Below are positions 23,390-51,100 of a stretch of DNA of 64,000 nucleotides, one piece after another; the stretch's first letter is position 1, and every line of letters begins with the position of its first letter. The stretch is from Candidatus Omnitrophota bacterium (GTDB lineage Bacteria > Omnitrophota > Gorgyraeia > Gorgyraeales > Gorgyraeaceae). Position numbers and translations under genes: made by a program. Under the pieces are notes generated by a model. That model worked only from the letters and a program-made list of their open reading frames with translations, ran no database searches and had not been told where the DNA came from. Location: assembly GCA_043822665.1 (NCBI GenBank), contig JBDRBM010000050.1, forward strand, positions 22,038 through 86,037, in the 5' to 3' direction.

Positions 23390-23406
23390 AATTAAAAAAT
23401 TCTACC

Positions 23407-26590: not shown

Positions 26591-28099
26591 TCATTGTAAT
26601 CTCTCGCCTTTCTGGCTTAGGATACTCGCTGTCACAAAAATTAAAAGATTCTTTCTCTGGACATTGTCTGAATCTTTTCTAAACAACCCTCCCAATAAAG
26701 GTATATCTCCCAGAAACGGCACCTTGGTCCGCGTATTTGTCCTTGTCTCCTTAACCAGGCCGCCAAGGACAATAGTATCGCCGTTTTTCACAACTATATT
26801 AGTATTCAAATTCCTTGTGGTAAACTTCGGTAATTTTACTTCTCCGCTAAAAGTAAAGGCATCAGGGGTTGCCTCGCTCACCTCTGGATTTAATGTCAAT
26901 GTTATGGTCTCTTTATCAGCGCCCACGCTGGGCGTCACTTTAAGTATAATGCCTATATCCCTTGTTTCAAACCCCTGCGGCACATTTACGAACCTTGTCT
27001 CCCTCACGCCGTCAACCACGTCAAGAAAAGTCCCGTTGTTATTCAGGTCCTGTTTTATCAGGGTCGGCTCATATCTGGATGGATATACAAATTCGTCAGC
27101 TATCTCTATTGTAGCAGTCTGATTATTCAAGGTTGTAATCTTCGGGGCTGAAAGCGTCTTGAGTTTTGTCTTTCTCTGAAGGGCATGCAGCACTGCTGAA
27201 AACTGGGGTTTTGTAAGCATACCCTGATATGTAAGGTTAAGCCCTTCATTGGGCGCGCCAGTAAAGGCCGAAAAACTTGAGCCTGTACCGCCTGATAATT
27301 GCGTCACTGCCGCACCATCATCCTTAAAAAACACCAACGGAGTATCCAGTGTTAGATTAACGCCCAATTCGCTCAGGTCTGTCACATCTACCTCTATGAA
27401 TCTCGTCTCTATGAGGATCTGGGCCGCGTCTACATCAAGGTTATAAAGAATCTTTTCTACAACCTTTAAATTAGACGGCGTGTTCGTCACTATCAGGGCG
27501 CCTGTGCGTTCATCTAAATTTATCTTGGAGTCACTCGGCCATGCCACAGCATTCTCAAGCACGTCCTTAATTGTATTTACCTTTGATATGCTGGCTACAC
27601 CGCCGAGTCCACTGCTTATGTCACCGGAAACACTCTGATCGAATTCAGTAAACATGGCCAGGCCCTGATTCAAATAATAGATCCTGGTCTCTGGCGTCTC
27701 TTCTTCCATTGCGTCAAATGTATCCACCCACACAGCATTCTTCTCAACCCTATAGGCCAGCCCTTCATTCCTGAAAATATACTTCAAAAGGCCCTCGAGC
27801 TGCATATCTTTCACGCGTATGGTCACTTTTTTTTCATCCGGTTTAACGCTATTGCCTAAAATGATGTTCACGCCTGTCGCGTCCGAGAGAAAATCAATAA
27901 CATAGCCAAGGCTTACGTCCCTGAAATCCACGGTTATGAGAGTCTCGAGCTTCTTTCTTATCTCGGGCACCAGGACCACAGAAAACTTATCTACATCAGA
28001 ACCGTCTCTAAGTGACCTTACTTCATAAGCGTATACAGACACTATACCGGCAAAAAAGACAGCTAATAAAAATACTGTAAAGACGCGCCTTTTTATCAT
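26591..28099 (-). CDS. Secretin (PilQ/GspD family), short form.
   Basis: Signal peptide. C-terminal secretin domain with …NGDTIVLGGLVKETRTNTRTKVPFLGDIPLLGGLFR…. Confidence 0.8.
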   Translation of the reverse strand: MIKRRVFTVFLLAVFFAGIVSVYAYEVRSLRDGSDVDKFSVVLVPEIRKKLETLITVDFRDVSLGYVIDFLSDATGVNIILGNSVKPDEKKVTIRVKDMQLEGLLKYIFRNEGLAYRVEKNAVWVDTFDAMEEETPETRIYYLNQGLAMFTEFDQSVSGDISSGLGGVASISKVNTIKDVLENAVAWPSDSKINLDERTGALIVTNTPSNLKVVEKILYNLDVDAAQILIETRFIEVDVTDLSELGVNLTLDTPLVFFKDDGAAVTQLSGGTGSSFSAFTGAPNEGLNLTYQGMLTKPQFSAVLHALQRKTKLKTLSAPKITTLNNQTATIEIADEFVYPSRYEPTLIKQDLNNNGTFLDVVDGVRETRFVNVPQGFETRDIGIILKVTPSVGADKETITLTLNPEVSEATPDAFTFSGEVKLPKFTTRNLNTNIVVKNGDTIVLGGLVKETRTNTRTKVPFLGDIPLLGGLFRKDSDNVQRKNLLIFVTASILSQKGERLQ

Positions 28100-30723
28100 T
28101 GTTCCCGCCCTACCTGGTCAGCTTGCGGCGAAACCGGTACGCTTGCCATTATATTGTCCTCTTTATTTAGAACAGTGGCTGTAACAAATATTAAAAGATT
28201 CCTGCGCTCTTTGCTGTCTATGCTTTTCCTGAATAACCCGCCTACAAACGGCAGATCCCCCAGCAATGGAACCTTTGTCTTTATATTGGTATCTGTCTCT
28301 TTTATAAGCCCTCCCAGCATCACTGTCTCTCCGCTCTCAACTATAACACTCGTCGAGAGATTTCTTGTCTTGAATTGCGGTATTGAAACATCTCCTGAAT
28401 AGGAAAAAGAACCTGAATCCTCGCTTACTTCCGGAGTCAATGCCAGGGTGATAGTCTTATTGTCCGCGCCAACGCTCGGTTTAACATGTAATAAGATGCC
28501 TACGTCTCTGGTTACGAAATCCTGTGGTATATTAGCCCATTCTGTCTCACCCGCGTCATCAAAATCTCCATCTCCGTTTATATCGAATTGCACAAGACTA
28601 ACCTCATACCTTGTAGGATAGATATATTCGTCTATAACTTCTATTGTCGCTCTCTGATTATTTAACGTTGTTATCCTCGGCGCGGACAAAGTCTTCACAT
28701 TCTGCTTTTCATTTAGGGCATGCATCACGGCCTGAAACTGCGGGTGGCTCAGGATCCCCTGGTATGTAAGATTAAAGCCTTCGTCTGATCTTGTAAAATC
28801 TGAAAAATCCACTCCGCCTCCGGAAGAAAATCCATGTATATTCTGTTTTGAGTTAGTCTGTTTAACCCCCCAATCACTATTGAGCTTCCATTCTATGCCA
28901 AGTTCATCCGTATCAGTAACCTTTACCTCTAAAAACCTGGCCTCGACCAATACCTGCACAGGCGTAACATCCAATGTATAAAGAAGATTCTCTATTGTTT
29001 CGAGGTTTGAAGGTATATTGCTTATTATCAGGGCTCCTGTGCGTTCATCCAGCGTCAATTTAGAGTCCTTTGGCCAATCCACGGCATTCTCGAGGATATC
29101 TTTAACCGTCTTCACCTCCGTAGAGGATGCGCTGGAGTCTTTACCGCCAGAAGAAACATTAAAGTCAGTAAACCTGCCTATGCCCTGGTTCAAAAAATAT
29201 ACCCTGGTATCTATGCTTTCATTTTTCAGCTCTTCTTTGGTCGCGACCCATACCGCGTCCTCTTCTATCCTGTAAACAAGATCTTGGGCTTTCAATATAT
29301 ACCTCAGGGCATCCTCAAGCGGCATATCTTTTATCTTCATGGTCACCTTTTTTTCAGACATCTCTATCTCACTTGAAGGCACTATATTTACGCCTGTGGC
29401 ATCTGATAAAAAAGAAAGCACATAATCAAGCTCCACATCTTTAAAATCCACGCTTATGGGTATCCCGAGCCTCTGCCTCACCTCAGGCACTTTCACGATG
29501 GGGGTTATCTTCTTCTTGTTTTCCAGAGTCCCTGTCTTTATCTCAGGAAGTAAATGTTTCTTCGCTACTTCCAGAAGCATCTTTTCTTCTGTGATTTCCC
29601 TGGCTCTACCCAATGCCTTTTCTTCAAGATGTATTTTCTGCAATTCTATATAATGCCCTATATCTTTAAATCTCTCGTTTTCAGGGAATTCTTCCATGGC
29701 CTGCGTCAGTGTTTTCTCCGCATCCTCAAAGTTATTGTCTCTTACCTGCTGGCGTATGGTATTCATCAACCCGTCTAATTTAGCTATCTTCTCCCTTATT
29801 ATCCGATCTTTAAGCCTTGCCTCGAAAATCTTCCTAAGTCTCGTTTTCTGCCTGTCCATCTTCTCTTTCTGCTTTAGCCTTAACTCTTCTTTAAGCGCCA
29901 GGCGTTTCTTTTCCTGTTCTAATTCCATATTAGCCTCCCTGGCCGCCTCCATCCTGACCAATAATTCCTTTTCTTCGTTTTCTTTTATCTGGGCCTGGGC
30001 CCTTTCTATAAAAGAATCTGACTGGCTGGCTAGTCTATTTTCCCGATCCAATTCCTTGACTCTTTTAAATTCCACTATGGCAGCCGGGTAATTTTGTTCG
30101 TTATAATATCCAAGGGCCCTCTCGTATGTGGACCGTACCTTTTTTTCCAGCTCAAGCGCCTTTTTTTTCTCAGTTTCTTCGGCAGAGCTTCTTTTTAACT
30201 CCTCTTCGCGTTTAATGCGCTTTTCTTCCTCTTCGCTGGCCTTTCTTACATTCTTCTCTGCCTCCTGCTGAACAACCTTTTCCGCTTCGCTTATAACATC
30301 GTTTTTCATCCTGGCCCATTTTCTATCCTCCAGAACAAGTCTCTCGCTGAGCCTGTCCTTTGATTTCTCAATATAGATCTCGGCAAAAGGCGTGAAATAT
30401 GATTCGTTCTGGGATTTTTCTATAGCCATCAGGTTTTCAAACACAGCAATAGCTTCTTCATATTTACCGCTTTCAAAAAGAGACATGGCTTTTTCAAAAT
30501 ATTTGCGAAGATCGACCCTTGAATACATCGCGGCCCTATTATTGTAAGCCGACGGCGAAGCCAAGGCAAAGGCCTGACTAAAAAATATGGACGAAAATAC
30601 GCCCACTAGCATAAAAACGCTTATTTTACATAATAATTTATGGTATGGAATTTCAAAAAGCAAAATTCCAACCACTGAAAATCTCAGAAAGTTATCGCCG
30701 AAAGCGATTTTCTTGTTTTTCAT
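28096..30723 (-). CDS. Secretin (PilQ/GspD family) with ~400-aa N-terminal TPR/Glu-Lys-rich coiled-coil extension.
   Basis: C-terminal secretin domain (…SGETVMLGGLIKETDTNIKTKVPLLGDLPFVGGLFR…). The N-terminal half is TPR-like followed by an E/K/R-rich low-complexity helix. Confidence 0.8.
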   Translation of the reverse strand: MKNKKIAFGDNFLRFSVVGILLFEIPYHKLLCKISVFMLVGVFSSIFFSQAFALASPSAYNNRAAMYSRVDLRKYFEKAMSLFESGKYEEAIAVFENLMAIEKSQNESYFTPFAEIYIEKSKDRLSERLVLEDRKWARMKNDVISEAEKVVQQEAEKNVRKASEEEEKRIKREEELKRSSAEETEKKKALELEKKVRSTYERALGYYNEQNYPAAIVEFKRVKELDRENRLASQSDSFIERAQAQIKENEEKELLVRMEAAREANMELEQEKKRLALKEELRLKQKEKMDRQKTRLRKIFEARLKDRIIREKIAKLDGLMNTIRQQVRDNNFEDAEKTLTQAMEEFPENERFKDIGHYIELQKIHLEEKALGRAREITEEKMLLEVAKKHLLPEIKTGTLENKKKITPIVKVPEVRQRLGIPISVDFKDVELDYVLSFLSDATGVNIVPSSEIEMSEKKVTMKIKDMPLEDALRYILKAQDLVYRIEEDAVWVATKEELKNESIDTRVYFLNQGIGRFTDFNVSSGGKDSSASSTEVKTVKDILENAVDWPKDSKLTLDERTGALIISNIPSNLETIENLLYTLDVTPVQVLVEARFLEVKVTDTDELGIEWKLNSDWGVKQTNSKQNIHGFSSGGGVDFSDFTRSDEGFNLTYQGILSHPQFQAVMHALNEKQNVKTLSAPRITTLNNQRATIEVIDEYIYPTRYEVSLVQFDINGDGDFDDAGETEWANIPQDFVTRDVGILLHVKPSVGADNKTITLALTPEVSEDSGSFSYSGDVSIPQFKTRNLSTSVIVESGETVMLGGLIKETDTNIKTKVPLLGDLPFVGGLFRKSIDSKERRNLLIFVTATVLNKEDNIMASVPVSPQADQVGREQ

Positions 30724-31286
30724 TTACCTTTAGACTCCGGCCCTTCATCTTTAGCGCTGCTTTTCTCTTTATCCTCTCTTTTGACAGCGCTCAATATTAC
30801 TTCTTCGCCGCCTTTCTTCTTCAGGACAACACTGCTCTCGTCTATGCTGGATACAAGAAAATCTCCAACCATGTCACCTTCCTGGACAAAGGAGCTTTTG
30901 CCTGTATTCTGATCCTCTATAATCACCATGACCTTTGCGCCCATCATCACCCTGCCTTTATATTTAAGTACGGCCTTTTTAGGGAGCTCTTTAACAGGTA
31001 TAGGTTCGGCCTTTTTAATCTTTTCTTCAGGCTTTATCCTGAAAAACAGGCTTCTGTCCAGGAGACTTTTATAGTTTTCGATATCTTCAGCAACTTTCAT
31101 CTTTACAAAATCCCATTTATCTCTTTCTTCTTTTATCTTGACCTTTGACCTCTTAGAAACCAGCTCTATATCTTGTTTCAACTCTTCTACCGCTGCCTTT
31201 TTATTGCCCTGCGAGGTAAGGCCAAGTATCAAAATAGCGGCAAAGATTGCTGCAAGAAGCCAAAATATTATCTTTTCTTTAATCAT
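30720..31286 (-). CDS. PilP-like pilot/periplasmic protein (putative).
   Basis: Signal-anchor followed by a charged linker and a C-terminal beta-sandwich-like segment (…KGRVMMGAKVMVIIEDQNTGKSSFVQEGDMVGDFLVSSIDESSVVL…). Lies between the PilO-like and secretin genes. Confidence 0.4.
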   Translation of the reverse strand: MIKEKIIFWLLAAIFAAILILGLTSQGNKKAAVEELKQDIELVSKRSKVKIKEERDKWDFVKMKVAEDIENYKSLLDRSLFFRIKPEEKIKKAEPIPVKELPKKAVLKYKGRVMMGAKVMVIIEDQNTGKSSFVQEGDMVGDFLVSSIDESSVVLKKKGGEEVILSAVKREDKEKSSAKDEGPESKGK

Positions 31287-32046
31287 TATCCTTGGCCCTC
31301 GTTATCTTAAACGTGCTCAATACAAGACTGGCTTCTATCTGATCAACACCTGTTTCGCTGCTTCTGATGTGTACTTCTTTCACTGAAACAGGCGGGCTGG
31401 CATTTTTTAGCCCCACCAGAAGCCCTATAAAGGCCTCGGTACCGGTCTTTATAGATATCTGCACAGGTAATTCTGTATAAAACACCTTTTTGCTTAAGGG
31501 TTCTATATAATCTATTGCCTTGAGCGGTTTTATAGCCGAAAATTCTACGCTATTGTTTTTTAATAGAGTGTCAACTGCCAGCTCAACTATCTCAAGCTGT
31601 CTCAATAAAGAGTCTACCATATTTTCTTTTGGAAGCCCGTCTCCGAATCCAAGATTTTGAGGAATCTTGATGTCTCTGGAGGATGCCTCTTCTGAGAACT
31701 TCTTTATACAACCGTGGAGCCTTTCTATGAAATACAGGCCTGCCTCGCTATTTGTCTCAGAAATGCGTGTCTTCTGCGGGTCAATAAAATCCTCGAGCTC
31801 TTCTAATTTCGACTTCATGCCAGTTTCTTCTTTCTTGAGTTTCTCAAAACCTTCTCTTGAAGGAAGGGTGCCTGTGCGGGCAATATACTTTTTCATCTCT
31901 AAGGTCTTGCGTTCAAGTTCTTCATCCAATATTGAACTGCCTTCTTTTAAAAATGGGCTCAGGACAAAAAAGTAGAGCCCCGCTGCAACCGCAAGCGTCA
32001 GTATGCCCTGTTTAAAAATAGTCTTTTCTCTGGCTGTTTTGAACAT
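31279..32046 (-). CDS. PilO/GspM-like inner-membrane assembly protein (putative).
   Basis: Single N-terminal TM, coiled-coil, then a periplasmic domain. Lies between the PilMN and PilP-like genes. Confidence 0.4.
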   Translation of the reverse strand: MFKTAREKTIFKQGILTLAVAAGLYFFVLSPFLKEGSSILDEELERKTLEMKKYIARTGTLPSREGFEKLKKEETGMKSKLEELEDFIDPQKTRISETNSEAGLYFIERLHGCIKKFSEEASSRDIKIPQNLGFGDGLPKENMVDSLLRQLEIVELAVDTLLKNNSVEFSAIKPLKAIDYIEPLSKKVFYTELPVQISIKTGTEAFIGLLVGLKNASPPVSVKEVHIRSSETGVDQIEASLVLSTFKITRAKDND

Positions 32047-32048: not shown

Positions 32049-33572
32049 TTAACTCTCTCCAGTCACAACATCCATAGTAATGCTGAATTTCACTATCTCT
32101 TCACCGGTCTTCTCGTCCGTATCTATGGAAGAAGATATGGGTTTGACTTCTCTAAGCCGGGACGAGGACTTCAGGCTCGAGACAAAATTATTAACAGCCT
32201 GGTACGACAATGCCTTCCCTCCTAAATCTAATCTGCCAAGTCCACTCTGTTCCAGCGACATAATCCCAGAGACATCTGTAATCCAGACATCTTTAGGTAA
32301 TATATCCGAAATGGCCTTAAACACAGAGAGCCAAATAGCCCTTGAGCCTTGGGTCTGGTATAAGATATCTGTTTTTGCCTTTAAAATATCTTCCCTATCC
32401 TGCAGTTGTTTTATCTTTGGCTCGTATGTATTATACAGATCCAGCATCTTGTCGATCTCGTCAAGCTTCACCCTTTTTACAGCATAATCCTGTCTCATAA
32501 AAACAGAAAAACTTATCACTACCAGCGCGGCCATTATAATGGAAAGTCTGGTATACAGGTTCTTCTGCCTTGATATACGGGATACAGAAAGTATCTCTTT
32601 AAGAAAATTTATCTCTATCTTAAGAGATGTAAGGCCGCGCAGCGCCAAGCCAACTGCTATCGAAAACTGGCTCTTGATTCCTTTTTCCTGCAGGCTCGCA
32701 AAGACCTCTTTGGAGACCCGAAGTTTTCTGAACGGGTCAAATGTCTTTGGTTTTACATTGAGTCTTTCGGCTATGCGGGATTCAAGCCCGTCTATAGCGC
32801 TGCCCCCGCCTGTCAGGATTAATTCGTCGAGCTTTTTCTCTCCCTTAAGCTCTTCTCCTTCCTGCATGAAATAATATTCTATGGAACGCTCTATCTCTCC
32901 GGCAAGTTCATCTATGCCCTGGTCTTTTGCCTCTTCAATGCGCTCGGCCGCTATAGGAAAACTCCTTACCCAGATATTGCCTTTTTTAAATATAACAAGG
33001 TTTGTGGCCTTTGTGCCTATATCCAGGATAATACCCAGGCCTTCTTCCTTGTAATCCTCATTAAATACCATACAGTTATACAGGCTAAGGGGGGATACAT
33101 CGATAACTCTAGTGGATAACTTTATGCTGTTTAATTTAGAGGTCATTTCATCTACCAGATTCTTTTTTATGGCGGCGATAACCGCCTTCTTTGTGGCCTT
33201 TGAGCCTGTATCAAGTAAACACCAGTCCCATGCGACCTCGTTCATGGAAAAAGGTATCTGGTTCTGCGCCTCGAACCTCATGGTCTGCCTTAACTTATCT
33301 TCTTTGGCCTGAAGGAGCTTTACAAACCTGATAAAGACAGATTGGCCAGCGGCGCAAATATTAACACTGCGGCCTTTTATATTATTCTCTGATAATAACT
33401 GCGATATCAATTGAAATGTTATTTTGTCCCTGTCCAGCTTCACGTCTTTAGGGATCTCCTTTATGCCAAATTTATTTAATATAATATTATCCCCTGACCT
33501 CTTCAGTTCTACGAGCTTTATAAAATGACTGCCTATATCCAGCCCTATAGAGCTTTTACTGAACTTTCGCAT
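32049..33572 (-). CDS. PilM (actin-like ATPase fold) - PilN fusion protein.
   Basis: N-terminal IGLDIGSHFIKLVEL (PilM/FtsA-like) through ~aa 330. A TM helix follows (LSIIMAALVVISFSVF) and then a PilN-like periplasmic domain. Confidence 0.65.
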   Translation of the reverse strand: MRKFSKSSIGLDIGSHFIKLVELKRSGDNIILNKFGIKEIPKDVKLDRDKITFQLISQLLSENNIKGRSVNICAAGQSVFIRFVKLLQAKEDKLRQTMRFEAQNQIPFSMNEVAWDWCLLDTGSKATKKAVIAAIKKNLVDEMTSKLNSIKLSTRVIDVSPLSLYNCMVFNEDYKEEGLGIILDIGTKATNLVIFKKGNIWVRSFPIAAERIEEAKDQGIDELAGEIERSIEYYFMQEGEELKGEKKLDELILTGGGSAIDGLESRIAERLNVKPKTFDPFRKLRVSKEVFASLQEKGIKSQFSIAVGLALRGLTSLKIEINFLKEILSVSRISRQKNLYTRLSIIMAALVVISFSVFMRQDYAVKRVKLDEIDKMLDLYNTYEPKIKQLQDREDILKAKTDILYQTQGSRAIWLSVFKAISDILPKDVWITDVSGIMSLEQSGLGRLDLGGKALSYQAVNNFVSSLKSSSRLREVKPISSSIDTDEKTGEEIVKFSITMDVVTGES

Positions 33573-33791
33573 CTACCGTGTCCTTCCCATTATCGCCTTA
33601 AGTCTTTTTATCTCGTCTTCTGTGTACTCGCGCCATCCATTCAGGGCATTACGTCCTGGTTTCGGGAATACCTTTTTATTTTCATATCTTATCAAAGTCT
33701 GTTTGGATATACCCAGAAACTGAGCAGTCTGTTCAGCTGAATAATATTTTACCTTTTTCATAAAAAGCACCTCGTTCATTAATGACTCCAT
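33573..33791 (-). CDS. Small MerR/excisionase-type HTH DNA-binding protein.
   Basis: 72 aa. Contains …YSAEQTAQFLGISKQTLIRYENKKVFP…, a MerR-like HTH. Confidence 0.55.
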   Translation of the reverse strand: MESLMNEVLFMKKVKYYSAEQTAQFLGISKQTLIRYENKKVFPKPGRNALNGWREYTEDEIKRLKAIMGRTR

Positions 33792-34168: not shown

Positions 34169-35992
34169 TTACTCTTCTTTCCAGAACCTAAATGGTTTCT
34201 TCTTTTGTGATTCTGGCTTTATAGCGCCTTTTGTGTTTATAGTCCATGTCCTTTCTTCAGGCACTGGATCTATCTCATCGGAGTCTATTTCGCCGTTATT
34301 ATTTACGTCTTTTGCGGCCTGGACTTTAAAATAGTGATTACCTTCTGATAGGCCCTCTTTCTTTGCGGAGTTCTCGATTAACCAGTCAGACCACTCCTCA
34401 TTGTCAAACTTCCATCTGAACACACATCCGCTTGTAGTAGCCTTAAATGTAAACAGGGCCTCTGTGGAAGCGGTAATAAGATTTGGCCCGCTGGTTATTA
34501 TGGTGTCCGGCGCTATTATTACAAGCTCTATGGTATCATTAAATATCTCGGATGTATTACCCGCGTTATCCTTAAACTTCACATAGACCTTTCTCGTGCC
34601 GCTTATAGCAGGCAATATCCAGTTATCCTTTTTAACGCTAAACGACTCCCATGGTTCAGTATCAAATACTCCGTCATTAGAGACAGACATGCTCTTAATG
34701 CCTGTATTGGAATCAACCGCGTTTATGGTTAGACTTACATAAACAGAATTGGTAAGCGAATCCTGATTGTTAATAATTATCGAGCCAGTGGGAGCAGCTG
34801 TATCCACAACGAAACTCCAGACCAGCGGCGAGGTCTTATTGCCCACGATATCGCTCACTTCAAACGATACGACATTGTCGCCATCGCTCAAAGGTATTGA
34901 AGGGACATAAATTACGCTTTGAATATTCTGGTCATAACTTGCCTGGACACTCGCGTGATTTATCTTCATTGTTATGCCATCAGGATTAACGCCGCTTTTA
35001 TCATCTGAAACACTTATGGAAATAGTAGGGGCATCAGTAGCCATAATAGTCCCGTTAGAAGGAGAATAATTCCCTACCACAGGAGAGCCCCTGTCTATCC
35101 ATATCTCAAAATTAGCGGTTTCTGTCCAGTTTCCAGCTGTATTCTGCGCCTTAAGATTAAACACCCTTACGCCATCATTAAGTAAGTTTCCCTGTGCCTG
35201 ATAGGACGTGCTCTTTGTATCAATCTGATCATCAGGTAAGCTGCCCCATGCATAGCTGTATCCGGCAACGTCTATTCCTGTAACAGGATATTCCCAATAG
35301 AGATAAGGCGTTGCGCATCCCTGCCATAATTTAGCAGGTATATTTGCGCCTGCGGGAGATACTCTTGCCCATATCACAGGGGCATCCAGGGCAGTTGTAC
35401 TAAGCCTGAAACCTCTCTGCGCCACCTGCCACCCTGAATAATCATAGCCATCGTTGACCCTTACACGCCACCTGTAACTAATACCCTGCTCATCTGTAGG
35501 AAGTATTGGGGTCGTAAAACTGTTATCGGAAGAAGAGATAAGAGTAGAGTCCACTATAAAGGTCTTAAAATTATCCTTTGAAACCTGGACCTGGTAATAA
35601 CGCTGTGGGTCTGTATCCTTGTCTTCATATGACCAGCTAAGTGCCGGAGTATCATCTAAAACAATTTCACCATCGTTAAAAGATGTAATGTTGACAGTGG
35701 GTATACTGTTCATGGTAGAAAGTATACCTGCGTAAATCTTGTAATTAGTGCCTATGGCGGGCTTGGTGCCCAAAGGAAAACCCATACTATTTTCAGCATT
35801 ATAACTGTCGGAGGCCCCTTTCATGCCTCCTCCGTCAACTGCCGCGGTATACAGCTTATAACTCTTACTGCTGGAAATAGCGGCCAAGGAAGTGCCTATA
35901 AAAATAAAAAAGACTATTATAAAAAATATAATAGCTTTTTTCTGTAAATTTATATTTCTGAAATTGAAATATAGATTAAGCATATTCAACAC
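34169..35992 (-). CDS. Large secreted/anchored beta-rich (Ig/FN3-like repeat) protein.
   Basis: N-terminal hydrophobic anchor. 607 aa rich in T/S/N/D/G beta-strand repeats. Lies within the pilus/secretion block. Confidence 0.5.
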   Translation of the reverse strand: MLNMLNLYFNFRNINLQKKAIIFFIIVFFIFIGTSLAAISSSKSYKLYTAAVDGGGMKGASDSYNAENSMGFPLGTKPAIGTNYKIYAGILSTMNSIPTVNITSFNDGEIVLDDTPALSWSYEDKDTDPQRYYQVQVSKDNFKTFIVDSTLISSSDNSFTTPILPTDEQGISYRWRVRVNDGYDYSGWQVAQRGFRLSTTALDAPVIWARVSPAGANIPAKLWQGCATPYLYWEYPVTGIDVAGYSYAWGSLPDDQIDTKSTSYQAQGNLLNDGVRVFNLKAQNTAGNWTETANFEIWIDRGSPVVGNYSPSNGTIMATDAPTISISVSDDKSGVNPDGITMKINHASVQASYDQNIQSVIYVPSIPLSDGDNVVSFEVSDIVGNKTSPLVWSFVVDTAAPTGSIIINNQDSLTNSVYVSLTINAVDSNTGIKSMSVSNDGVFDTEPWESFSVKKDNWILPAISGTRKVYVKFKDNAGNTSEIFNDTIELVIIAPDTIITSGPNLITASTEALFTFKATTSGCVFRWKFDNEEWSDWLIENSAKKEGLSEGNHYFKVQAAKDVNNNGEIDSDEIDPVPEERTWTINTKGAIKPESQKKKPFRFWKEE

Positions 35993-36131: not shown

Positions 36132-39100
36132 TTACCGCTCAAAGACCGCCCAGATCTTTTTTTCTGAAAGGACTTTGTCTTTTTCCATGACTTGACCGGT
36201 TACGATAATACGATAGACGTCGGAATGTACAGTAATAAGATTTGAGATCTGTTTAAACCTGAGTTTTTTATCTGACTCTTCTGAACCCAAGGCATCCGCT
36301 GAAACTAGATCGCCTATGCCAAACCCCAGATTGTTTTTATTGCCAAATACCCTGTTACTTATAATGCTATCCGCGACCTGTTCATTGATCCCGGGTAAAA
36401 CATTCAATACCTTCTTTGAAGCAGTATTTATGTTTATTCTGCCATCCATTGAGTTTACAGGGTCAAGTCTTATAAAATCAAAATGCGCGGCGCCTGTCTT
36501 AGAGGTATTTTTTATCTTTAATTCAAGGGTGCCTTTTGGCGTGGATATAGGACTGCCTGTTCCGACTTCTATATTACCAAAAAGTATGCTTCCATCAGGA
36601 CCAGGAGTAAGAAAAGGGGTAAAAGCGCTCCACGTGCCATCGGCTAAATGAAGTGACGCTGATATCTCTTCTTCCTCTTCTCCAAATATCCTCAAGACAT
36701 AATATCCGTCTTTCAACCCATCTTTTGATTCCCAGCGCCACATGCCTATAGAATCCACTTTACCGCTTTCAAAATGGTCTGTATAAGGAAACGCCCTTTG
36801 AACAAGCTTCCATCCGCCTTCTTCTCCTTCTGCTATATGCCCTTCCGCCTCAAGCCTTAAGCCAAATACTGTCAGTCTGTCAGCTATCTTTGCAACATCG
36901 CTCATTGAGATTTGCTCCCATTCTTTCAGGCTCAATGCCACATAGGCAATCTCTCCGGGTGATGAGAAATTTTTATTCTTCACATTGACCTCTGTTACAT
37001 CGTGTTCTATTATCTCCTCCTCTATCTCCTCTTCCATGCCATCATTGTCATTCGGCAGCCCTGGCGTTGCGCCCTTTTCAGCTTTTGAAGAATACCAATT
37101 ATCCGGCACGCCGTTAGAATTAGAGTCGAGGATATAGCTGGGGTCTGATTTTTCCATGCTTATATTAAAGCTGACATTCCCGCTAAAGTATTCTTCTGTA
37201 TCTACTATATGTCCCATAGGGTCTTTTAGTGTAATTATATTCCCTCCAGGGAAAACATCGTTGGAAAGAAGATCGGAGTCAGGGGTAATTGAGCGTAAAA
37301 AATGCAACTCTACTGAGCTTTCCTTGCCCCAGATGGATAAAAATGATATTCCATTGTTTCCAATGCCTTCCCGAGAATCATCTTTATCCACACAAAGAGC
37401 TAGATGACCGTGCGGCTGAATAATTGTTCCTAACGGGATAGAGGCAGGCCACCCCTCTCTACTTGGCCCTTCTATGCTCCAGCCTCCGAGGTCGACTTCT
37501 CTGGGTGTAAGATTTACCAGTTCTATGCATTCTCCGTCAGGCTCCTGGCTCAATTCTATAGACCTAAAGGATGTCGAACCTGTTGTAAGATTATTTTGGA
37601 CGCTGATAGTCAGTTTTCCTCTGCTAACCTTGACTGTCTTGCCAGCTCCAAATAAATCCCCATCCAGCATGTTCCTTGAATGAGAACCATCTATCTCCAC
37701 ATCTCCTATTGCCTGTCCTGAACCGCTCCCGAACAACTTTACATAATAAGTTCCTTCGGGTATGTCCTTCCATATCCATATCCCCTCGCCTGTGCGGCCG
37801 CCGTTTGGCTCATTATTCTGGTAGTAACCTCCCTGCCAATGCCAGTCACCGCCTGGCTCCTGGCCGCTAAAAGTGCCTCTGGCAATAACAGGTTTAACCA
37901 TTATTTCATTTATCCTTATGCCTTCTATGCCCCGCACCTCTAAAGAACTAAAACCTTCCTGTCCCAACCTCGGATACAATTCCAGGCGAGAAAAATAACA
38001 GGCTCTATCCTCTTCTGAGTTAGTAATAGTCAGGTTCAATATCCTGTTTTCAAACAAAACAGGGCCTATCCTCAATATCTCTCCGTGTTTAACAGATGAT
38101 TGTGTCATGCCATTTATATCAATATCCCCGATCAATTCGTCCCCGACACCGAATACCCCGATATAATATTCCCCTTCCGGCAAATTCATCCAGCTGATGA
38201 CAAGTGGATCCCCTTTTGACACATCGCTTTCATAATGACCGTTTTTCCAGATCCAGTCACCTATAGGCCCTCTATTTATAGCATATATACCGCTATATAA
38301 TTTTGTAACAATGCTCTGGCTAAAATCCTCATCACAGGCATCTATTATATTAACCGCTTTCTGAAATGGGTCTGTGCATCCGGATTCTTCCATGAGTATT
38401 GCCAAAGATGAGGCCTTCATGAAATTTATATTCTCGCGCAGGCGGCCCTCTACATCGGTATTCTTATCTACGGAATAAGATGTTATATATGCGTATATGT
38501 TGTTGAATTTATCCTTGGCCATGGAGCCTATCTTCGCAAGTTCAAAAGGTGTCTGGAAGGGATTATCATCACCGTAAGGCGAATCCGGAACAAATTCCAT
38601 TGGCTCATCTATCCCCTCGCCAGCCTCGTCGATTAACCCGTCCGCATTATTATCTATCCCGTCAGAACCAAGCGCCCTCTGGTTTTGATTATCATCAACA
38701 CCAGCCTCGCCAGGGCCTCCATCCAAGCCATACCTATGATTAATTATACCCTCATAAACTTTTTCGGAATCGGCTAGGTTGAAAAAAGTAAGAAATTGTT
38801 TGAGATCCAATTCGTAGGGTGTCCAGCCTTCTGTCAGTTTTAAAGGAGATTGGTTATGCGTATTTGCGATATTTATATTCAAAAGACTTGTCTCGTCTCT
38901 CACTAAAACCGCGTAACGGCCTACCGCGTCACCCGCGTCATCATATATATATATCCATTTTGAATCATTTTCTCCGTCACCATCATTATCAATATCAGAA
39001 CCAGTAAAAACCGTATACCATTTGTCTTCGAAACTATCTATTTTTCTATCATCTTCCTTAAGCACTGCCTGGGCGTAGTCAATGCCGGCCTCGGCAAGAT

Positions 39101-39242
39101 AAGTTGCCCTTGTTGCCTCAAGATAATTAGTCGCGGCCTTTAATTCAAGCCGCATTGTAAAGGCAAAGGAAACCGCCATTATGCCTGTAACAGCCAGTAC
39201 ACTTACAACCAGTATTAAAGCGATACCCTCATTATTTTTCAT
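36132..39242 (-). CDS. Giant GspK/PilX-like minor pseudopilin (1036 aa) with a large central insertion.
   Basis: N-terminus GIALILVVSVLAVTGIMAVSFAFTMRLELKAA matches the T2SS-K family. The C-terminus has the GspK helix-hairpin-helix (GRININTASKKVLNVLPGI…). The central ~700 aa contain three repeats of a W-x-W…G-Y-Y module. Confidence 0.6.
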   Translation of the reverse strand: MKNNEGIALILVVSVLAVTGIMAVSFAFTMRLELKAATNYLEATRATYLAEAGIDYAQAVLKEDDRKIDSFEDKWYTVFTGSDIDNDGDGENDSKWIYIYDDAGDAVGRYAVLVRDETSLLNINIANTHNQSPLKLTEGWTPYELDLKQFLTFFNLADSEKVYEGIINHRYGLDGGPGEAGVDDNQNQRALGSDGIDNNADGLIDEAGEGIDEPMEFVPDSPYGDDNPFQTPFELAKIGSMAKDKFNNIYAYITSYSVDKNTDVEGRLRENINFMKASSLAILMEESGCTDPFQKAVNIIDACDEDFSQSIVTKLYSGIYAINRGPIGDWIWKNGHYESDVSKGDPLVISWMNLPEGEYYIGVFGVGDELIGDIDINGMTQSSVKHGEILRIGPVLFENRILNLTITNSEEDRACYFSRLELYPRLGQEGFSSLEVRGIEGIRINEIMVKPVIARGTFSGQEPGGDWHWQGGYYQNNEPNGGRTGEGIWIWKDIPEGTYYVKLFGSGSGQAIGDVEIDGSHSRNMLDGDLFGAGKTVKVSRGKLTISVQNNLTTGSTSFRSIELSQEPDGECIELVNLTPREVDLGGWSIEGPSREGWPASIPLGTIIQPHGHLALCVDKDDSREGIGNNGISFLSIWGKESSVELHFLRSITPDSDLLSNDVFPGGNIITLKDPMGHIVDTEEYFSGNVSFNISMEKSDPSYILDSNSNGVPDNWYSSKAEKGATPGLPNDNDGMEEEIEEEIIEHDVTEVNVKNKNFSSPGEIAYVALSLKEWEQISMSDVAKIADRLTVFGLRLEAEGHIAEGEEGGWKLVQRAFPYTDHFESGKVDSIGMWRWESKDGLKDGYYVLRIFGEEEEEISASLHLADGTWSAFTPFLTPGPDGSILFGNIEVGTGSPISTPKGTLELKIKNTSKTGAAHFDFIRLDPVNSMDGRININTASKKVLNVLPGINEQVADSIISNRVFGNKNNLGFGIGDLVSADALGSEESDKKLRFKQISNLITVHSDVYRIIVTGQVMEKDKVLSEKKIWAVFER

Positions 39243-39271: not shown

Positions 39272-39309
39272 AATTGCAAACTTGCAATTAAATTGCAAAC
39301 TTGCAATTA
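39272..39309. promoter_or_regulatory. Tandem duplicated 19-bp palindromic motif (aattgcaaacttgcaatta x2) upstream of the giant pseudopilin gene.
   Basis: Two perfect copies lie 30-67 bp upstream of the start codon. An AT-rich TATATATAAT box sits between the repeats and the ATG. Confidence 0.45.
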
Positions 39310-39339
39310 AAAAACCCCGTCCGCTGTCTGCGGACGGGG
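39309..39339 (-). terminator. Rho-independent terminator of the 39369-40043 gene.
   Basis: The hairpin CCCCGTCCGC-tgtc-GCGGACGGGG is followed on the minus strand by a T-run. Confidence 0.7.
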
Positions 39340-39368
39340 TATGTATCTGAGAGAAGTCCGGTAAGCTA

Positions 39369-45155: not shown

Positions 45156-48100
45156 TCAACATTTGGAATATCCGCAGGAACGACAGACTACGCAGCCTTC
45201 TTCGTGCCTTAACGCGGCTCCGCAATCAGGGCACACGCCTACCACATTCCCCAGCTTATCCTCTATCATTGTATGAGGAGATCTCTTTTCAGATTCCTCT
45301 TTTTTATCGTGCATCTTGCCGTTTCCAAGTCTCAGCTCAAGGACCCTTGAAATCGCATCCGCGCATGAAAAGATCCTGCCGCTCTTTTCCCATGAAGGTG
45401 ACGGACAGCGTATTCCGCGCAACTGGTCCACTATCTTCTTGTTCTCCACGCCTGAGCGTAATGCCAGCGAAACAAGCCTTCCTATCGCCTCAAGCTGACT
45501 TGCCGCGCAGCCTCCAGCTTTGCCCATCTGTATAAACACCTCGAAAGGCATACTATTATCGTCGACATTTATAGTAATATAAAGGTTGCCGCATCCTGTC
45601 ATGACCTTCGTAGTGGTGCCTGTAGTTACAACAGGCCTGGGTCTTGGCGCCACGAATTTCTTATCCCTGACCTCTAAGGGTTTTTCTGTTGTTTCTTTCT
45701 TGTTTGAACTTATATTCAACACCTGCTCCTCCCTGCTTTTATCCCTGTAGATTGTTACGCCCTTGCAGCCTAATTTATAGGCCAGCATATATACTTCCCT
45801 CACATCCTCCATAGCCGCCTCATGATGAAAATTTACTGTCTTCGAAACCGCGTTGTCAGTGTGCCTCTGAAAAGCAGCCTGCATCCTTATGTGCCACAGC
45901 GGGGCTATGTCATGTGAAGTAACAAATACCTTTTTATATTTTTCAGGCACCTCTTCTATGCCCTCTAACGAGCCTTTCTCAGCGATTTCTTCCATAAGCT
46001 TCCTTGAATAAAAACCTTCTCTTTTCGCAATTTCTTCAAACAGGGGATTTACCTCAACCAGCTTGTCATTATCCATAACATTCCTGTAGAAAGAAATGGC
46101 AAACAACGGTTCTATTCCGCTCGAAACATTCGAGATAATAGATATGGTCCCTGTTGGAGCAATGGTAGTCAATGTAGCATTCCTTCTCGGGCTTGAGTTA
46201 TCTTCCGCAAGCTTACTGTCATTATAGGAGGGGAACGCGCCTCTGGACGCCGCAAGCTCTTCGGACTTCTTCCTGGCCTCTTCGTTAATAAAACTCATCA
46301 CTCTCTCAGCCAGATCAACTGCCTGGTCGCTATTATAAGGTATCTCAAGATGTATCAATAGATCGGCCCACCCCATGATACCAAGGCCTATTTTTCTATT
46401 TGTCCTTGTCATTTTCCTTATCTCATCCAGAGGGAACTTATTCATATCTATTACGTTATCCAGAAAATGAACACCGAGATGCACAAGCCTTTTCAAATTG
46501 TCCCAGTCAATATCTTTTTTGCCATTGCCGGAGACTATCTTTGAAAGATTTATAGAGCCTAAATTACAGCTTTCAAAAGGCAAAAGAGGCTGCTCGCCGC
46601 AATCGAGTGAAACAAAACCGTTTGTAACAAAAGTGTAAGTCTTGGGTTCTGTAAGATCGTAAACGTCTTCTTTTCCTATCTTTTCTATGTTTTCTATCTT
46701 CTCTTCAAAACTGTCACTATAATATTTCTTAGCATAAAACTTGCTGACCTTTCCTTTATGCTTATCGCACAAAAAACCTATACTTGCAAAAAATTTAATA
46801 ACCGACTCTCGCGAAATCTCCAATTCATAACATATCCCATCTAATAGATATTTCTTTATCTCGCCATTTTTCGTAACATAGTCAAATCCGTATCTTTCCT
46901 TTCTGCTTCTATCGTATATTCGAGATTTAATTCCTAGATTTAAAAGCAACAATTGAACTCCTTTTAGTAATTTCAAAGATTTGGCTGTTAGTCTAACGTA
47001 AGAAGAATAATTTACTTTGAAATTAACCGTCCCATCAGCGCTAAATAACCCCTGCAGAAATCCTATCACCGCTTCTTTTGATGCCGTATAGATTGATTCA
47101 GGGACAGTCTTTTCGTCCGATCGCCCTGTCTTAACTCCTAACATTCTGAAGAATTCGACGAAATATCTGCTATGGTACGAAAGATGAGTAACGCCATTTT
47201 CTCTTTCTACTTCTTTTATGTCATATCCATACCAATTATTAAGAATGGGCTTTAGGTAATTCAATATTTCTTTATCGCTCCTGCTAAACGTTAAGCCCAG
47301 TCTGCAATTTTTATCTCCTTCTCTTAACCAGCCATCACCTACGATCCAGCCTAACACCTGTCCTAACTCCTTGCTCCACGAAGAAGGCATGTCAAACTTA
47401 TATCTCCTTCCGTTTTCTCCCATAAAATTATTTATCACGGGAAACGACAGGCTTTTATCTTCGTTGAACTTTCCCTCGCCTGATTGCATTAATATCCTAT
47501 GGTAATTTTTTTTCAGGGCCGTCAGCTTAACCCACCCTTCCTGAGTCATTATCTTGTGGTCAGCCGTCGCTTGTAATTCATAACCGGATTTAGTAACTAA
47601 CCTGAAAACGTCCTTATGCCCGGTAAAAAAAGCCTTACTTATAGAATTAAAGGTAATACCTGTTTTCGGATCTGCCTTTACCAACAAACCACCGCATTCT
47701 TTTTCAGAATATAAAATTTCCTGAACCCTGTCATCGGTACCAATACGAACCCCCCCCTGCGCAAAAGATTTGACAATATCCCTCATTCTCATAAGGCCGT
47801 GTTCGGTACAAACCAGAGTATCTCCGGTAACGCATGGATTAGTCGATTCGATATCGCCTAATTTCGGAGTAGGATTGTCCTTATTGATCCTGTCTATAAA
47901 GACAATGCCTGGTTCGCCGTTCTTCCATGCCTTTTCAACAATCAACTCGAATACATCTTTTGCCTTTAACTTCATGGTCTCCTTTTTCGTATGCGGGTCG
48001 ATCAGGGGATATTCTTTATCCTCTATGACCTTATCCATAAAATCTTCTGTAATGGCAACTGATATATTAAAATTTGTTATCTCCTTGTCGTTTTCTTTGC

Positions 48101-51100
48101 ATTGAATAAACTCGAGGATGTCAGGATGATCTACCCGTAAAATACCCATGTTGGCCCCACGACGTGTGCCCCCCTGCTTCACGGCCTGCGTGGCCGCGTT
48201 AAATACCTTCATAAAGGAAACCGGGCCGCTCGAAACTCCGCCTGTAGAACGGACAACACTGTTTTTCTGCCTCAATCTTGAAAAATTAAATCCTGTACCA
48301 CCGCCTGAATTGTGAGAAACAAAGCCGTTTGCCAGATAACAATGTTTAAACGGAATGGTTAAATCATAGGTCTCCATTATTCCGACGGGACTCACATTAG
48401 AAATCCTTGCAAAATAGCAATCTTCTTTCAAGAGAGTTTTAAAAAATTGCGGAACAACTGAATTGCTTTCGATTGTTGAAACAAGTCTTTGTCTTGTCAG
48501 TTCTCTGGGCTTAGCGATTCTGTTTATAATATCATCGAATAAGCGGCGAGCTTCATACCTCTCCGGAATGCTGTCAAGGTCGTCATACCATAACCTAATC
48601 CGGCCTTTCTGGTGCGGGATGACTTCGGCTCGCTTAAAGATTTCCGAAGAAATAATACCATCCAATCTTTCATTCTTTCTTTTAAGTAAAAATCCGACTT
48701 TTTCTCTGAAATTTAAAAATCCTTTTTTACTGCATATAGAAACTTGAAAACTATTAGTGGATCCAAAATATTTTCTACGCGTAGGTATTCCTATATAGAG
48801 CATAAGGGTTTGCAGTTCTTTGGAGAGCATCTCGGAACTTGTAGTTAAAGTTATATGGCCTGACTTACGGATACAACCATCAGTCGAAAACAAACCTCTC
48901 AGAAAAGCGCCTATAATATCTTCTGATGCTCCAAAAATAACTTCAGGAATTTTAACTTCCCGCGCCAAAGGTTTACTTATACCCAGAAATTCAAACCACT
49001 GCTTTATTATCGTGCTTAAAATCGCGACTTCATAATTTCCATTGGAAGTAAGGCTAAATGTTGCTTTTCGCTTGAATACTATTTTTGACAATCTATCGAT
49101 TATATCGACCATCTCTCTATCGTCTTTGCCAACCGAAAACCTGATACCGTCTCTGTGTTTAGAGCCGTCACCTATATAAATACCGATAAGCCCTGCCAGC
49201 TCTCTTGTCATCTTAGCGGGAAGTCTCACCTTTTGAGCCCTAAACTGACCTGAATTTAAAACGGGTCTGGGTTTGTATTTAAAAGACGGCAAGCTATTAT
49301 CTCCGCCTTCTAATTTACTATAAGGTTTCATCACCACCCAATCGCCCTTTTTAAGGCCTCCTATCTCCCGCCAAATATAATCGCCATTTTCAGCTACAAC
49401 TAAAAGCTTATGCTCAGCAGTTCCTCTGATCGTATATCCCCTGTCTGTAACGACTTCAAAAACAATCTGTTTTCCATTATTATAAACTTCCTTTGCCGGG
49501 AAATATCCTTCGTCTGTTTGTATCTGCATACCCCTTTTTATATCTTTTATTCTCTTTATGCCGCTTTTGGTTTTAACCATTGTGTCCGGAGTTAAACATT
49601 TATGTATCATAGCGGTGTTCTTTATCGCGTCAAATATAGACTCCATGGAATCATCTACAGGCAGGACAAAGCAATTATGAACACTGACCATATTTGCGCA
49701 GTATGAATGGTCTTCCTCAACCTCAAGATTATAGACTTCATCTTGATAAGGCTGTTTTATTATTTCGGTGATAGGCGTCAAAAGCGTATCTCCGCGAACT
49801 ACAGTCCGAATATAACTTTTGCCATTATGGGTGATATCGGTATCTAAAAGTTCGCTCATAAATTTGGTGCCGCTTTCTCCGCTAACTGTGCATCTGACTG
49901 GCAAAGTTCTACCAAGTTTAGGCATTGATTCAAAATTAAGTGCAGCAAAATGTCCGGCTCTCATAACCAACTGCCATGCTGCATAAACTAAATTCATATT
50001 ACACATAACAAGCCTTGTGGAGAAATTATTGCCATTTTTAAACGTACAGCTATCTCCACGAAACATTCCTGCCAGGAGACCTTTTTGTTTTTCTATAGGA
50101 AGGAACATAATCCACGAGGGTATCTTTTTTGATGCATAGCCTGTTCCAAATAAATTTTCAAAAAATCCAGCCACTATTTTTGAATGAAATCTTATCGATA
50201 ACCATCGCTGGTCAGGGGAGTTAGTTTCCTCAATACTGGAACTAAGTCTGAATTTTTCCTTCATTATCTTAAGAATATCTTCGCAATAATCTCTTTCTTT
50301 TTCAGAGAAAACAAAGCGTAAGGTAGTATTATCACTAACACATCCTTCGGATAGGTAGTATCCAAACAATCTCATTAGATCCGCATCGATCTCTATTCTG
50401 CTTCTAATAGGCGTAACCTGCTGGGAAATCTTTCCTGACCTATTCCTATTTTGAATATACACACTACCGTCTCTTCTAACTGTGCGTCTTATATCAGTAT
50501 TTTTTCCGTATAAAACACCGTTCCTACCAATAAATTTGTTATCATTAATAAAATCCAGTATTTTAATATCCCTAACGTCAACAACCTCTTTAGGAAAGCT
50601 TACTGCTATATAATCTCCCACAGACAAATCCTTTATTTGAATCCACATAGGATTATCGCTGCTTCCCTTTTTAACCGCGAGTATAGGATGTTCTCCTGTT
50701 ACCTTAAGGGTCTCGGTAGGAAGTTTATAGGCGTTAAGGATATAAATTTCATTTGATTTCCTGACAAATATTTTAGTTATCTCCCTGAACCTGTTTTTAT
50801 GGGTTAATACCAATTCTCCATTCTTTATTTCGGATATTCGCTTCGGTCCAGATTCAGTTATAACAATCTGGTCCGGCGTAAAGCAAGCTGACAACTGGCC
50901 CAGGTCCTTACCCGCGTTCATAAGAGTGGGGCTATTGGGCATGAATTCAAAATTTGACATAATACTGTAAAAATTTTCTTTTGTTATTTTGACTTCCCTG
51001 TCATTGGCTTCATAGATCCTGTCTGCCTCAGCTATGTGTAACGCGACCCTTCTGAACATTTCCTCAGGGGTCTCAATAATCTTCCCGTCTTTGTCTTTTT

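Follow-up and report, generated by a model that had tools for sequence, protein, structure and literature searches.

The 64,000-nucleotide stretch of DNA analysed here (the window) comes from Candidatus Omnitrophota bacterium (contig JBDRBM010000050.1, positions 22,038 to 86,037) and has a G+C content of 41%. Its minus strand contains an uninterrupted open reading frame (ORF) of 1036 codons with an ATG start (36132..39242), and a plus-strand reading of the same interval was ruled out by stop codons throughout the translation. The deduced protein, referred to below as giant K, is identical to protein ABH815_04885 of a metagenome-assembled genome (MAG) of Candidatus Omnitrophota bacterium at NCBI. 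Profile matches and a structure model identified it as a GspK-type minor pilin. A preliminary description made from the sequence alone had seen in it a GspK/PilX-type minor (pseudo)pilin with ~700 extra residues of repeated beta modules, and this view was confirmed. The parts of the gene, in the direction of its transcription, are the following.

39054..39242, minus strand: prepilin-like leader MKNNEG, then hydrophobic IALILVVSVLAVTGIMAVSFAF and the alpha-1 helix; residues 1-63 (translation, DSSP helix 3-63, N-terminal matches to NCBIfam T2SS_GspK and Verru_Chthon_A)
38808..39053, minus strand: first three strands of the pilin sheet (80-84, 96-100, 106-116) and acidic loop DIDNDGDGENDSKW; residues 64-145 (model secondary structure, NCBIfam GspK 5-144)
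38319..38807, minus strand: first GspK-type alpha-subdomain; acidic loops of DxDxDG-like type at 183-216 and, at ~270-305, a first helix-hairpin-helix (HhH)-like motif, 'NINxxxA'; residues 146-308 (helices 147-303, T2SSK_1st in a family member, profile alignment of homologue L049)
37959..38318, minus strand: module copy R1, found by a hidden Markov model (HMM) at 321-423; residues 309-428 (HMM 105 bits, Smith-Waterman)
37875..37958, minus strand: first strand of the lamin-tail domain (LTD) ('GIRINEIMVKPV', 442-453), cut off from the remaining LTD by R2; residues 429-456 (in-silico removal of R2)
37545..37874, minus strand: module copy R2, nested in the LTD according to profile scores, best-conserved copy; residues 457-566 (HMM 138 bits, stand-alone model, Foldseek)
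37068..37544, minus strand: remainder of the lamin-tail (immunoglobulin (Ig)-like) domain; residues 567-725 (Pfam LTD, Foldseek)
36843..37067, minus strand: acidic linker and small mixed subdomain; residues 726-800 (model secondary structure)
36453..36842, minus strand: module copy R3 (HMM 805-926), divergent copy; residues 801-930 (26.1 bits with a profile free of R3; R2-R3 z 9.7)
36243..36452, minus strand: second GspK alpha-subdomain with HhH motif 'GRININTASKKVLNVLPGI'; residues 931-1000 (Pfam HHH_3, T2SSK)
36132..36242, minus strand: two strands closing the pilin sheet (1009-1020, 1023-1035); residues 1001-1036 and stop codon (model strands, GspK topology)

A full-length model of giant K was computed with AlphaFold2 (AF2; ColabFold) from an alignment of 54 homologues, to which all conservation values given below refer. 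The mean predicted local distance difference test score (pLDDT) was 89.3 and the predicted template modelling score (pTM) 0.87. In the model, helix 3-63 comes first, followed by three strands (80-116) and a region of helices; a long insert rich in beta strands, the HhH region and the two closing strands (1009-1035) complete the chain. As this is the topology of GspK, in which an extra domain follows the third strand (PMC6561018), the model supports the GspK identity. Comparison of the model with the PDB by Foldseek gave the XcpX/GspK structures 9a1f_T, 6utu_C and 3ci0_K with a probability of 1.00 and target template modelling (TM) scores of 0.38-0.43.

The profile searches pointed to the same family. 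NCBIfam T2SS_GspK (NF037980) matched residues 5-144 and a second stretch (E 1e-15) with 58.1 bits, which is below the curated equivalog cutoff of 130, and in homologue L049 (~34% identity) the NCBIfam GspK match had an E value of 8.4e-26 and aligned residues 34-299 with profile positions 1-238 of 307. A Pfam scan of the intact protein reported only LTD, HHH_3 and a sub-threshold DUF2528; HHH_3 at residues 935-965 scored 29.5 bits, above its gathering score of 27. Pfam T2SSK was not reported for the intact 1036-aa protein, and a construct from which the insert had been deleted reached 17.7 bits, less than the required 24.2. T2SSK was nevertheless found at the position of the C-terminal HhH in core constructs of the window protein and three homologues as well as in the intact homologues P0090 and P0118, and T2SSK_1st mapped to ~121-232 in one family member. 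A phmmer search of the insert-deleted core construct against PDB sequences gave no GspK match. Resting on HMMs and fold, the relationship to GspK is clearly homologous yet divergent.

The leader MKNNEG is followed by IALILVVSVLAVTGIMAVSFAF without a Glu at +5, as is typical for GspK. G6, which is the Gly at -1, A8, L9 and V12 were at least 90% conserved, while W96, Y110 and D116 were invariant, as were G934, N937, N939, T940 and A941. Both ends of the protein thus turned out as first described: the prepilin-like N-terminus was recovered by the NCBIfam match, helix 3-63 and the Foldseek result, and the HhH-bearing C-terminus by HHH_3 and by the fold match to GspK. The acidic, possibly Ca-binding Asp/Gly stretches that had been reported from the insert are present but were misplaced; they occur at 83-96 and 183-216, in the conserved core of pilin fold and alpha-subdomain, and are placed outside the insert because T2SSK_1st maps to ~121-232 in the family member mentioned. 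Their conserved DxDxDG-like loops read 'DVDNDGDGxxDSRW' and 'DGIDNDxDGxIDE'. GspK/XcpX bind 2-3 Ca2+ (PMC6211770).

An insert of ~620 residues separates the two GspK alpha-subdomains. An HMM built from the R1 and R2 sequences of the family, without any R3, found three domains in giant K: 321-423 (105 bits), 457-566 (138 bits) and 805-926, the last with 26.1 bits and a conditional E of 3.6e-10 over model positions 7-108. Smith-Waterman alignments compared with shuffled sequences gave z values of 20.6 for R1-R2, 9.7 for R2-R3 and 3.0 for R1-R3, and a self-BLASTP of the protein showed no off-diagonal matches. The three repeats originally noticed exceed chance, but the unit is about 105-120 aa long instead of ~60 aa, as it extends to the '...LTIxxxN...F..IEL' strands. 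R2, LTD, linker and R3 were present in all 54 aligned homologues. The R1 region comprised only 6-12 residues in 17 of them, and since these 17 are the most distant members, R1 probably arose later, by duplication from a unit like R2.

The lamin-tail domain, in which one copy of the module is nested, had been overlooked in the preliminary description. Pfam LTD (PF00932) matched residues 568-685 (E 1.2e-7) without its first ~20 profile positions, and its score in the intact protein (32.5-33.4 bits) was just under the gathering score of 34.3. When residues 459-562 were deleted in silico, so that 430-458 were joined to 563-730, the score rose from 33.4 to 37.8 bits and the match covered profile positions 7-107. 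Removal of R2 from P0065, a 41%-identical homologue, raised the LTD score from 35.8 to 40.9 bits. Because the LTD gains score and coverage when R2 is deleted, R2 is placed inside the LTD. With the full-length model, Foldseek found the Ig fold of lamin A/C (1ifr/3gef) with a probability of 1.0 and a TM score of 0.58. E440, R443, N445 and E446 were conserved, and the linker region 726-800 holds the conserved motif 'ADRLTVxGxRLEAEGH'. Profiles and model together show the ~170-residue GspK alpha-domain used as an insertion platform, with R1, the LTD carrying R2, the linker and R3 between its subdomains. Nesting occurs at three levels, with a sandwich in the LTD, the LTD in the GspK alpha-domain and the alpha-domain in the pilin fold. 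The high pTM of the model suggests that this head is rigid. The net charge of the protein is -76 (family mean -67), to which the LTD contributes -16 and the modules -3 to -8 each.

Neither Pfam nor the PDB contained a sequence relative of the module. A Pfam scan of 43 module sequences with E values up to 1 revealed no family and no carbohydrate-binding module (CBM) but scattered sub-threshold matches to the generic beta-sandwich families NAR2, CarboxypepD_reg, fn3_3 and Y_Y_Y, and the module profile searched against PDB sequences with E values up to 10 gave nothing below 0.06 and no CBM. R2 modelled alone with AF2 formed a compact sandwich of about nine strands with a pLDDT of 96.8. The nearest structures found by Foldseek were the agarase CBM6 domains 2cdo/2cdp (E 8.5e-4), CBM35 and the collagen-binding domain of ColG, with probabilities of 1.0 for CBM6 and ColG and 0.87-0.99 for CBM35, at TM scores of 0.40-0.55 and identities of 13-17%. 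In the model the module thus resembles the CBM6/CBM35 beta-sandwich at the level of the fold only, and its novelty holds for the sequence and not for the fold. The tryptophans of the W-x-W motif were conserved in the family alignments. Because the x positions were variable and polar, this suggests that the tryptophans face the core and that the motif is a signature of the fold instead of an obvious binding platform.

The module profile was also searched against 1.84 billion representative proteins (E up to 1e-3), with 399 matches. Matches to the whole profile were confined to proteins of ~240-1110 aa (most ~460-1110), with two or three stretches each, and those of the shorter proteins that were checked carry LTD, HHH_3 or T2SSK and are members or fragments of the giant-K family. 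The many multi-stretch matches in proteins of 2000-8000 aa were rejected as evidence for an independent mobile domain, for which the earlier reader had proposed to look: they covered only profile positions ~20-70 and were read as a generic beta-hairpin resemblance, and of two such proteins that were checked one was fn3/tenascin-like and one SprB/CHU_C. As a whole unit the module occurs, by these profile matches, only in the giant-K family.

The family itself is widespread in the phylum. Homologues fell into 98 protein clusters from NCBI, JGI, ENA and Logan assemblies with lengths of mostly ~940-1100 aa and for the larger part 1000-1060 aa. In the source databases they are annotated as 'GspK', as 'lamin tail domain-containing' or as 'helix-hairpin-helix domain-containing'. 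When the GTDB species representatives were scanned with giant K, 200 matching stretches were obtained, from which 75 loci were retained. Nearly all of these belong to Omnitrophota MAGs or single-amplified genomes (SAGs), and several are third-party assemblies labelled 'uncultured Planctomycetia'. The ORF is no assembly chimera, because the 98 clusters stem from independent assemblies and the GTDB species representatives match as well. Mis-assembly had been raised as a concern at the outset; such a chimera, or else a fused pseudogene, is now of negligible probability: length and domain order are equal among the clusters, the architecture of ~1000 aa is common to at least 75 species-level GTDB genomes including SAGs, and one confident model spans the entire chain. 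No paper describing the family was found, and a literature search for Omnitrophota and GspK returned zero papers. Papers on Omnitrophota treat type IVa pili (T4aP) as well as type II secretion systems (T2SS) in general terms only, and databases annotate the family generically.

Giant K begins its own transcription unit, as judged from the strong terminator that follows the MscS-like gene upstream, and heads an operon of pilus-assembly genes. The features of this region are listed below.

39274..39340, minus strand: upstream control region (terminator, repeats, promoter-like element)
34169..35992, minus strand: 607-aa Ig-rich protein with Sec signal (Pfam Ig_Rha78A_N, Big_13; OmpL47-like)
33573..33791, minus strand: 72-aa DNA-binding protein of the MerR/HTH_17 type, between the Ig-rich gene and pilMN; kept to ~39% K identity
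26591..33572, minus strand: pilMNOPQ-like assembly genes (Pfam, NCBIfam), consisting of the next five
32049-33572, minus strand: PilM-PilN fusion
31279-32046, minus strand: PilO/GspM-like protein
30720-31286, minus strand: PilP/GspC-like protein
28096-30723, minus strand: secretin 1, 875 aa, with an extra N-terminal part of ~400 aa that contains tetratricopeptide repeats (TPR)
26591-28099, minus strand: secretin 2, 502 aa

The MscS-like gene that precedes K has an intrinsic terminator (39340-39314), a strong hairpin with an 11-bp stem. AATTGCAAGTTTGCAATTT is present in two direct copies, each with TTGCAA twice, which make up the sole such site in the window, and a promoter-like element, TTGCAA-17-TATAAT, overlaps them. 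This site may be an operator; it was not conserved in locus L001, where K is 69% identical. The 72-aa MerR/HTH_17 protein may be a dedicated regulator of the pilus operon. The two tandem secretins are paralogous (53% identity over 458 aa), and most related loci keep both of them after the K operon. The 607-aa Ig-rich gene was located 3' of K in ~50 related loci, down to 31% K identity and almost wherever the downstream DNA sufficed. Its product gave no match to PDB sequences. The N-terminal region of the product showed a weak match, below the cutoff (E 3e-5), to PamT, which has been proposed as the tip pilin of 'Pam', a newly described donor-strand pilus of the Candidate Phyla Radiation.

Gene order was compared by tblastn of the operon proteins of the window against 80 related loci. 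The order K, Ig607, (helix-turn-helix (HTH) gene), PilMN, PilO, PilP, secretin, secretin was kept down to a K identity of 31%. In mid-distance relatives, pilins of ~120 aa and ~190-230 aa with GFxLxE-type signals directly precede K. Locus L049 has the order GspF, PilV/GspI-like pilin, GspJ-like pilin, K, with the two pilin genes at 8904-9281 and 9259-9942. L041 has GspI/J-like genes ahead of K and an ATPase of PilT size ~8 kb upstream. In the far relatives L003 and L005, K ends a row G-(H)-I-J-K beside GspE/PilB, a PilT-size ATPase and GspF. GspI- and GspJ-like genes therefore stand directly before K in these four and in many mid-distance loci, but not in the window, where the MscS-like gene and its terminator lie upstream. 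In L001 a separate set of filament genes (1-9033) lies ~7 kb upstream of giant K and comprises GspE with an MshEN domain, GspF, a GspG-like protein, two small proteins, a 398-aa PilX_N protein, PilMN and PilO. The equivalent position of the window is occupied by gpmA and glycosyltransferase genes.

Larger or duplicated K-like proteins also occurred. In L005 (4347-12898) two giant K-like paralogues of 997 and 965 aa flank the G-H-I-J-like pilin row. In L078 (10001-14254) a K homologue of ~1400 aa lies behind five pilin-like genes, and P0085, P0092, P0093 and P0098 are K-like proteins of 1327-1451 aa with LTD and/or HhH. On account of L005, L078 and these larger proteins, the GspK alpha-domain seems to have served repeatedly as a platform for insertions in the group.

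Further genes were noted in the window, those of the intervals 45156-51212, 51333-59171 and 16501-25327 on the minus strand. A 2018-aa ORF (45156-51212) encodes the large subunit of ribonucleotide reductase, interrupted by at least two inteins with LAGLIDADG homing-endonuclease domains (Pfam Ribonuc_red_lgN/lgC, three Intein_splicing, two LAGLIDADG_3, Hint_2, TSCPD). An 'aerotolerance' operon of the BatA/BatB/BatD type (51333-59171) has two VWA+BatA, two BatD, TPR, TPR-SH3 and DUF58 proteins. At 16501-25327 there are genes for hydrogenase maturation (C-terminal part of HypF, HypD, HypE-like) and then a biotin synthesis set (BioB-like radical SAM protein, BioF-type class I/II aminotransferase, BioD-like AAA_26). 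A LacI-family regulator is encoded at 25443-26444.

On balance, giant K, a minor pilin of the GspK/PilX class, probably caps a filament that resembles a type IV pilus and displays a rigid, probably glycan-binding head for attachment to cells. A prepilin peptidase would remove the short leader. The filament would then be nucleated by the alpha-1 helix, 60 residues long, in concert with minor pilins of the GspI- and GspJ-like kind, so that K would come to lie at the distal tip, as expected from the GspK family. The whole protein is predicted to be one rigid and very acidic body. Extrusion of the filament through the secretin encoded downstream would present the head outside, where it would most likely bind a conserved ligand, either a carbohydrate or a component of the cell envelope, on a surface or on another cell; for ultra-small, putatively host-dependent bacteria this could be a grappling tip. 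The neighbouring Ig-rich secreted protein is, speculatively, a partner.

The function of the head, ligand binding and attachment, we infer from the folds and from the literature. The 'tip-displayed binding or capture domain' of the preliminary description is a reasonable supposition by analogy, as GspK caps the filament and modular pilins are known (PMC8179133). Binding modules grafted onto pilins are an established strategy, seen in PilB-vWA (von Willebrand factor A), PilC-lectin, CofB and ComZ, and the lectin and vWA modular pilins are established adhesins (PMC8179133). Bacterial LTDs often accompany oligosaccharide-binding domains (PMC6085458). The filament context is supported by the position of K at the head of the pilM/N-O-P-secretin operon. 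Omnitrophota genomes encode T4aP almost universally, V. archaeovorus expresses T4aP, and T4aP attachment to host cells has been proposed for the phylum (PMC10066038).

Several observations weigh against a pilus-tip adhesin. The NF037980 score is under its curated cutoff, and the CBM6/CBM35 likeness is model-based and confined to the fold. A head of ~115 kDa would have to pass the secretin. Scanned with a regular expression for class III signal peptides, the window yielded no further pilin gene, and neither an ATPase nor a prepilin peptidase gene was found within it. The GspM- and GspC-like matches and the GspG-type major pilin in relatives would fit a type II secretion machine equally well. 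Among close homologues the modules were no more variable than the core, and a receptor binder engaged in an arms race was dropped for this reason; the low variability fits a conserved ligand.

An unlikely but possible reading makes giant K the tip of a type II secretion pseudopilus that, unlike an extended pilus, is short and confined to the periplasm. The enlarged head would dock a specific folded cargo, for example the 607-aa Ig-rich protein, and push it through the secretin. The best HMM match of giant K is T2SS GspK, the neighbouring proteins match GspM-like and GspC-like families, the major pilin in relatives has a T2SSG domain, the Ig protein with its Sec signal is invariably co-encoded, and T2SS/T4P genes of Omnitrophota flank giant secreted proteins and glycoside hydrolases (bioRxiv 10.64898/2026.06.07.730766). 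The GspC and GspM matches are, however, weak (E 4e-5 to 1e-3), the Omnitrophota systems are classed as T4aP in the literature (PMC10066038), and four ligand-type beta-sandwich domains would have no obvious use in a periplasmic piston. A pilus is favoured because of the pilM-N-O-P-Q order with its type IV pilus-like PilM-PilN fusion, the PilT-size ATPases in relatives and the NCBIfam matches to the pilus families Amuc_1101/1098, PilM and PilQ. A scaffold anchored in the inner membrane that never enters a filament, a pilin-derived machine part binding for instance peptidoglycan or the secretin pair through its sandwiches, would agree with the absence of adjacent I/J pilins in the clade of the window, with the co-encoded alignment-complex and secretin genes and with the proposal that LTDs direct proteins to membrane-associated structures (PMC6085458). 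In most of the family, however, K stands directly behind I-/J-like pilins, and conservation is strongest in alpha-1 of the pilin fold and in the closing strands, as expected if incorporation into a filament is selected. We consider such a scaffold very improbable.

Slightly less remote, but still improbable, is a DNA receptor at the pilus tip that serves natural transformation or DNA scavenging like ComZ of Thermus and binds DNA by its LTD and ComEA-like HhH. When the C-terminal region was compared with PDB sequences, the HhH repeats of EEPD1 and ComEA matched best, and homologue L049 gave NCBIfam matches of the comEA type. LTDs are present in extracellular nucleases such as ExeM, in which LTD deletion lowers the activity in vitro (PMC6085458), and ComZ, a GspK-like pilin into which a large domain is inserted, binds DNA (PMC6561018). 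The HhH is, however, a regular structural element found in every GspK (Pfam T2SSK), also in systems that play no part in DNA uptake, the function of bacterial LTDs is unsettled in the literature (PMC6085458), and Pfam and NCBIfam scans revealed no com genes in the operon. The strongly acidic character of protein, LTD and modules also speaks against DNA as a ligand, but as ComZ too has no obvious basic patches (PMC6561018), charge alone is not decisive.

The pilus-tip adhesin can be extended to a bolder proposal, in which the giant cap, the invariably co-encoded Ig-rich partner and the unusual pair of paralogous secretins form a dedicated 'grappling' pilus that recognizes a conserved envelope glycan of a host or prey, and by which the ultra-small Omnitrophota would haul themselves onto such cells. 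The nested head would then be a new rigid receptor-binding architecture, and the second secretin would be adapted for the bulky tip. This is possible but doubtful.

Omnitrophota occur widely, are uncultured and for the most part ultra-small, and are suspected to live on other cells. Giant K, as a cap pilin of ~1000 aa conserved throughout the phylum and equipped with four ligand-type domains, is a candidate for their cell-contact molecule, and its domains could be expressed singly for glycan-, DNA- and cell-binding assays without cultivation. The operon of K, Ig-protein, HTH protein, pilMNOP and two secretins is conserved and merits structural study. The idea of the 'modular pilin', with its C-terminal grafts, would be extended to insertions that lie deep and nested within the GspK alpha-domain, and a CBM-like sandwich sequence family absent from Pfam would be added to the modular pilins.

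Compared with GspK/XcpX (PDB 3CI0, 5VTM/6UTU) and their T4aP counterpart PilX, giant K has the same prepilin-like N-terminus without Glu5, the alpha-domain inserted after the third strand, acidic loops of putative Ca type and the 'iNiNTA' HhH motif, and in most relatives its gene is likewise placed behind GspI-/GspJ-like genes. Giant K differs in being about three times longer (1036 aa versus ~300-330 aa), with ~620 beta-sandwich residues between the alpha-subdomains and a score under the curated cutoff. In the clade of the window it precedes a pilMNOPQ-like operon instead of following G-H-I-J. The Verru_Chthon cassette A/B/C (TIGR02600/02598/02599) of Verrucomicrobia, which also belong to the Planctomycetes-Verrucomicrobia-Chlamydiae (PVC) group, combines a K-like protein of ~1300 aa with small I-/J-like pilins, and weak reciprocal matches were obtained for all three. 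The match to Verru_Chthon A (TIGR02600) was limited to residues 6-67 and 32.1 bits, compared with a cutoff of 332.3, and the body of the protein is unrelated.

In its model the module resembles the beta-sandwich of ~110 residues of CBM6/CBM35 and the ColG collagen-binding domain, but no sequence-profile relationship connects them and the TM scores stay at the 0.40-0.55 given above. The T4aP tip adhesins PilY1/PilC also have ~1000 residues and variable binding modules, and they are a precedent for the passage of a large tip object through a secretin; PilY1 is, however, not a pilin and is characterized by a C-terminal beta-propeller, none of which appeared in the Pfam scan of giant K. ComZ of Thermus thermophilus (PMC6561018) has a GspK-like fold whose sheet accommodates a very large, rigid extra domain, and was argued to fit only at the tip. 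Its insertion is a single DNA-binding beta-solenoid between the penultimate and last strands, whereas that of giant K lies within the GspK alpha-domain and consists of Ig-like and CBM-like sandwiches.

The modular pilins (PilB-vWA and PilC-lectin of S. sanguinis, CofB of enterotoxigenic E. coli; Raynaud et al. 2021, PMC8179133) likewise combine a pilin module with domains of ligand-binding type, are expected at the tip and have carbohydrate-binding folds among their commonest grafts. With a pilin fold, an LTD and three CBM6/35-like sandwiches, giant K agrees with their definition. That definition was based on IPR012902 (N_methyl), which was not detected in giant K, as is presumably usual for GspK. 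The known modular pilins carry one or two extra domains, attached C-terminally via a linker. Giant K, from a diderm of the PVC group, has four, which lie inside the pilin fold and one of which is nested in another.

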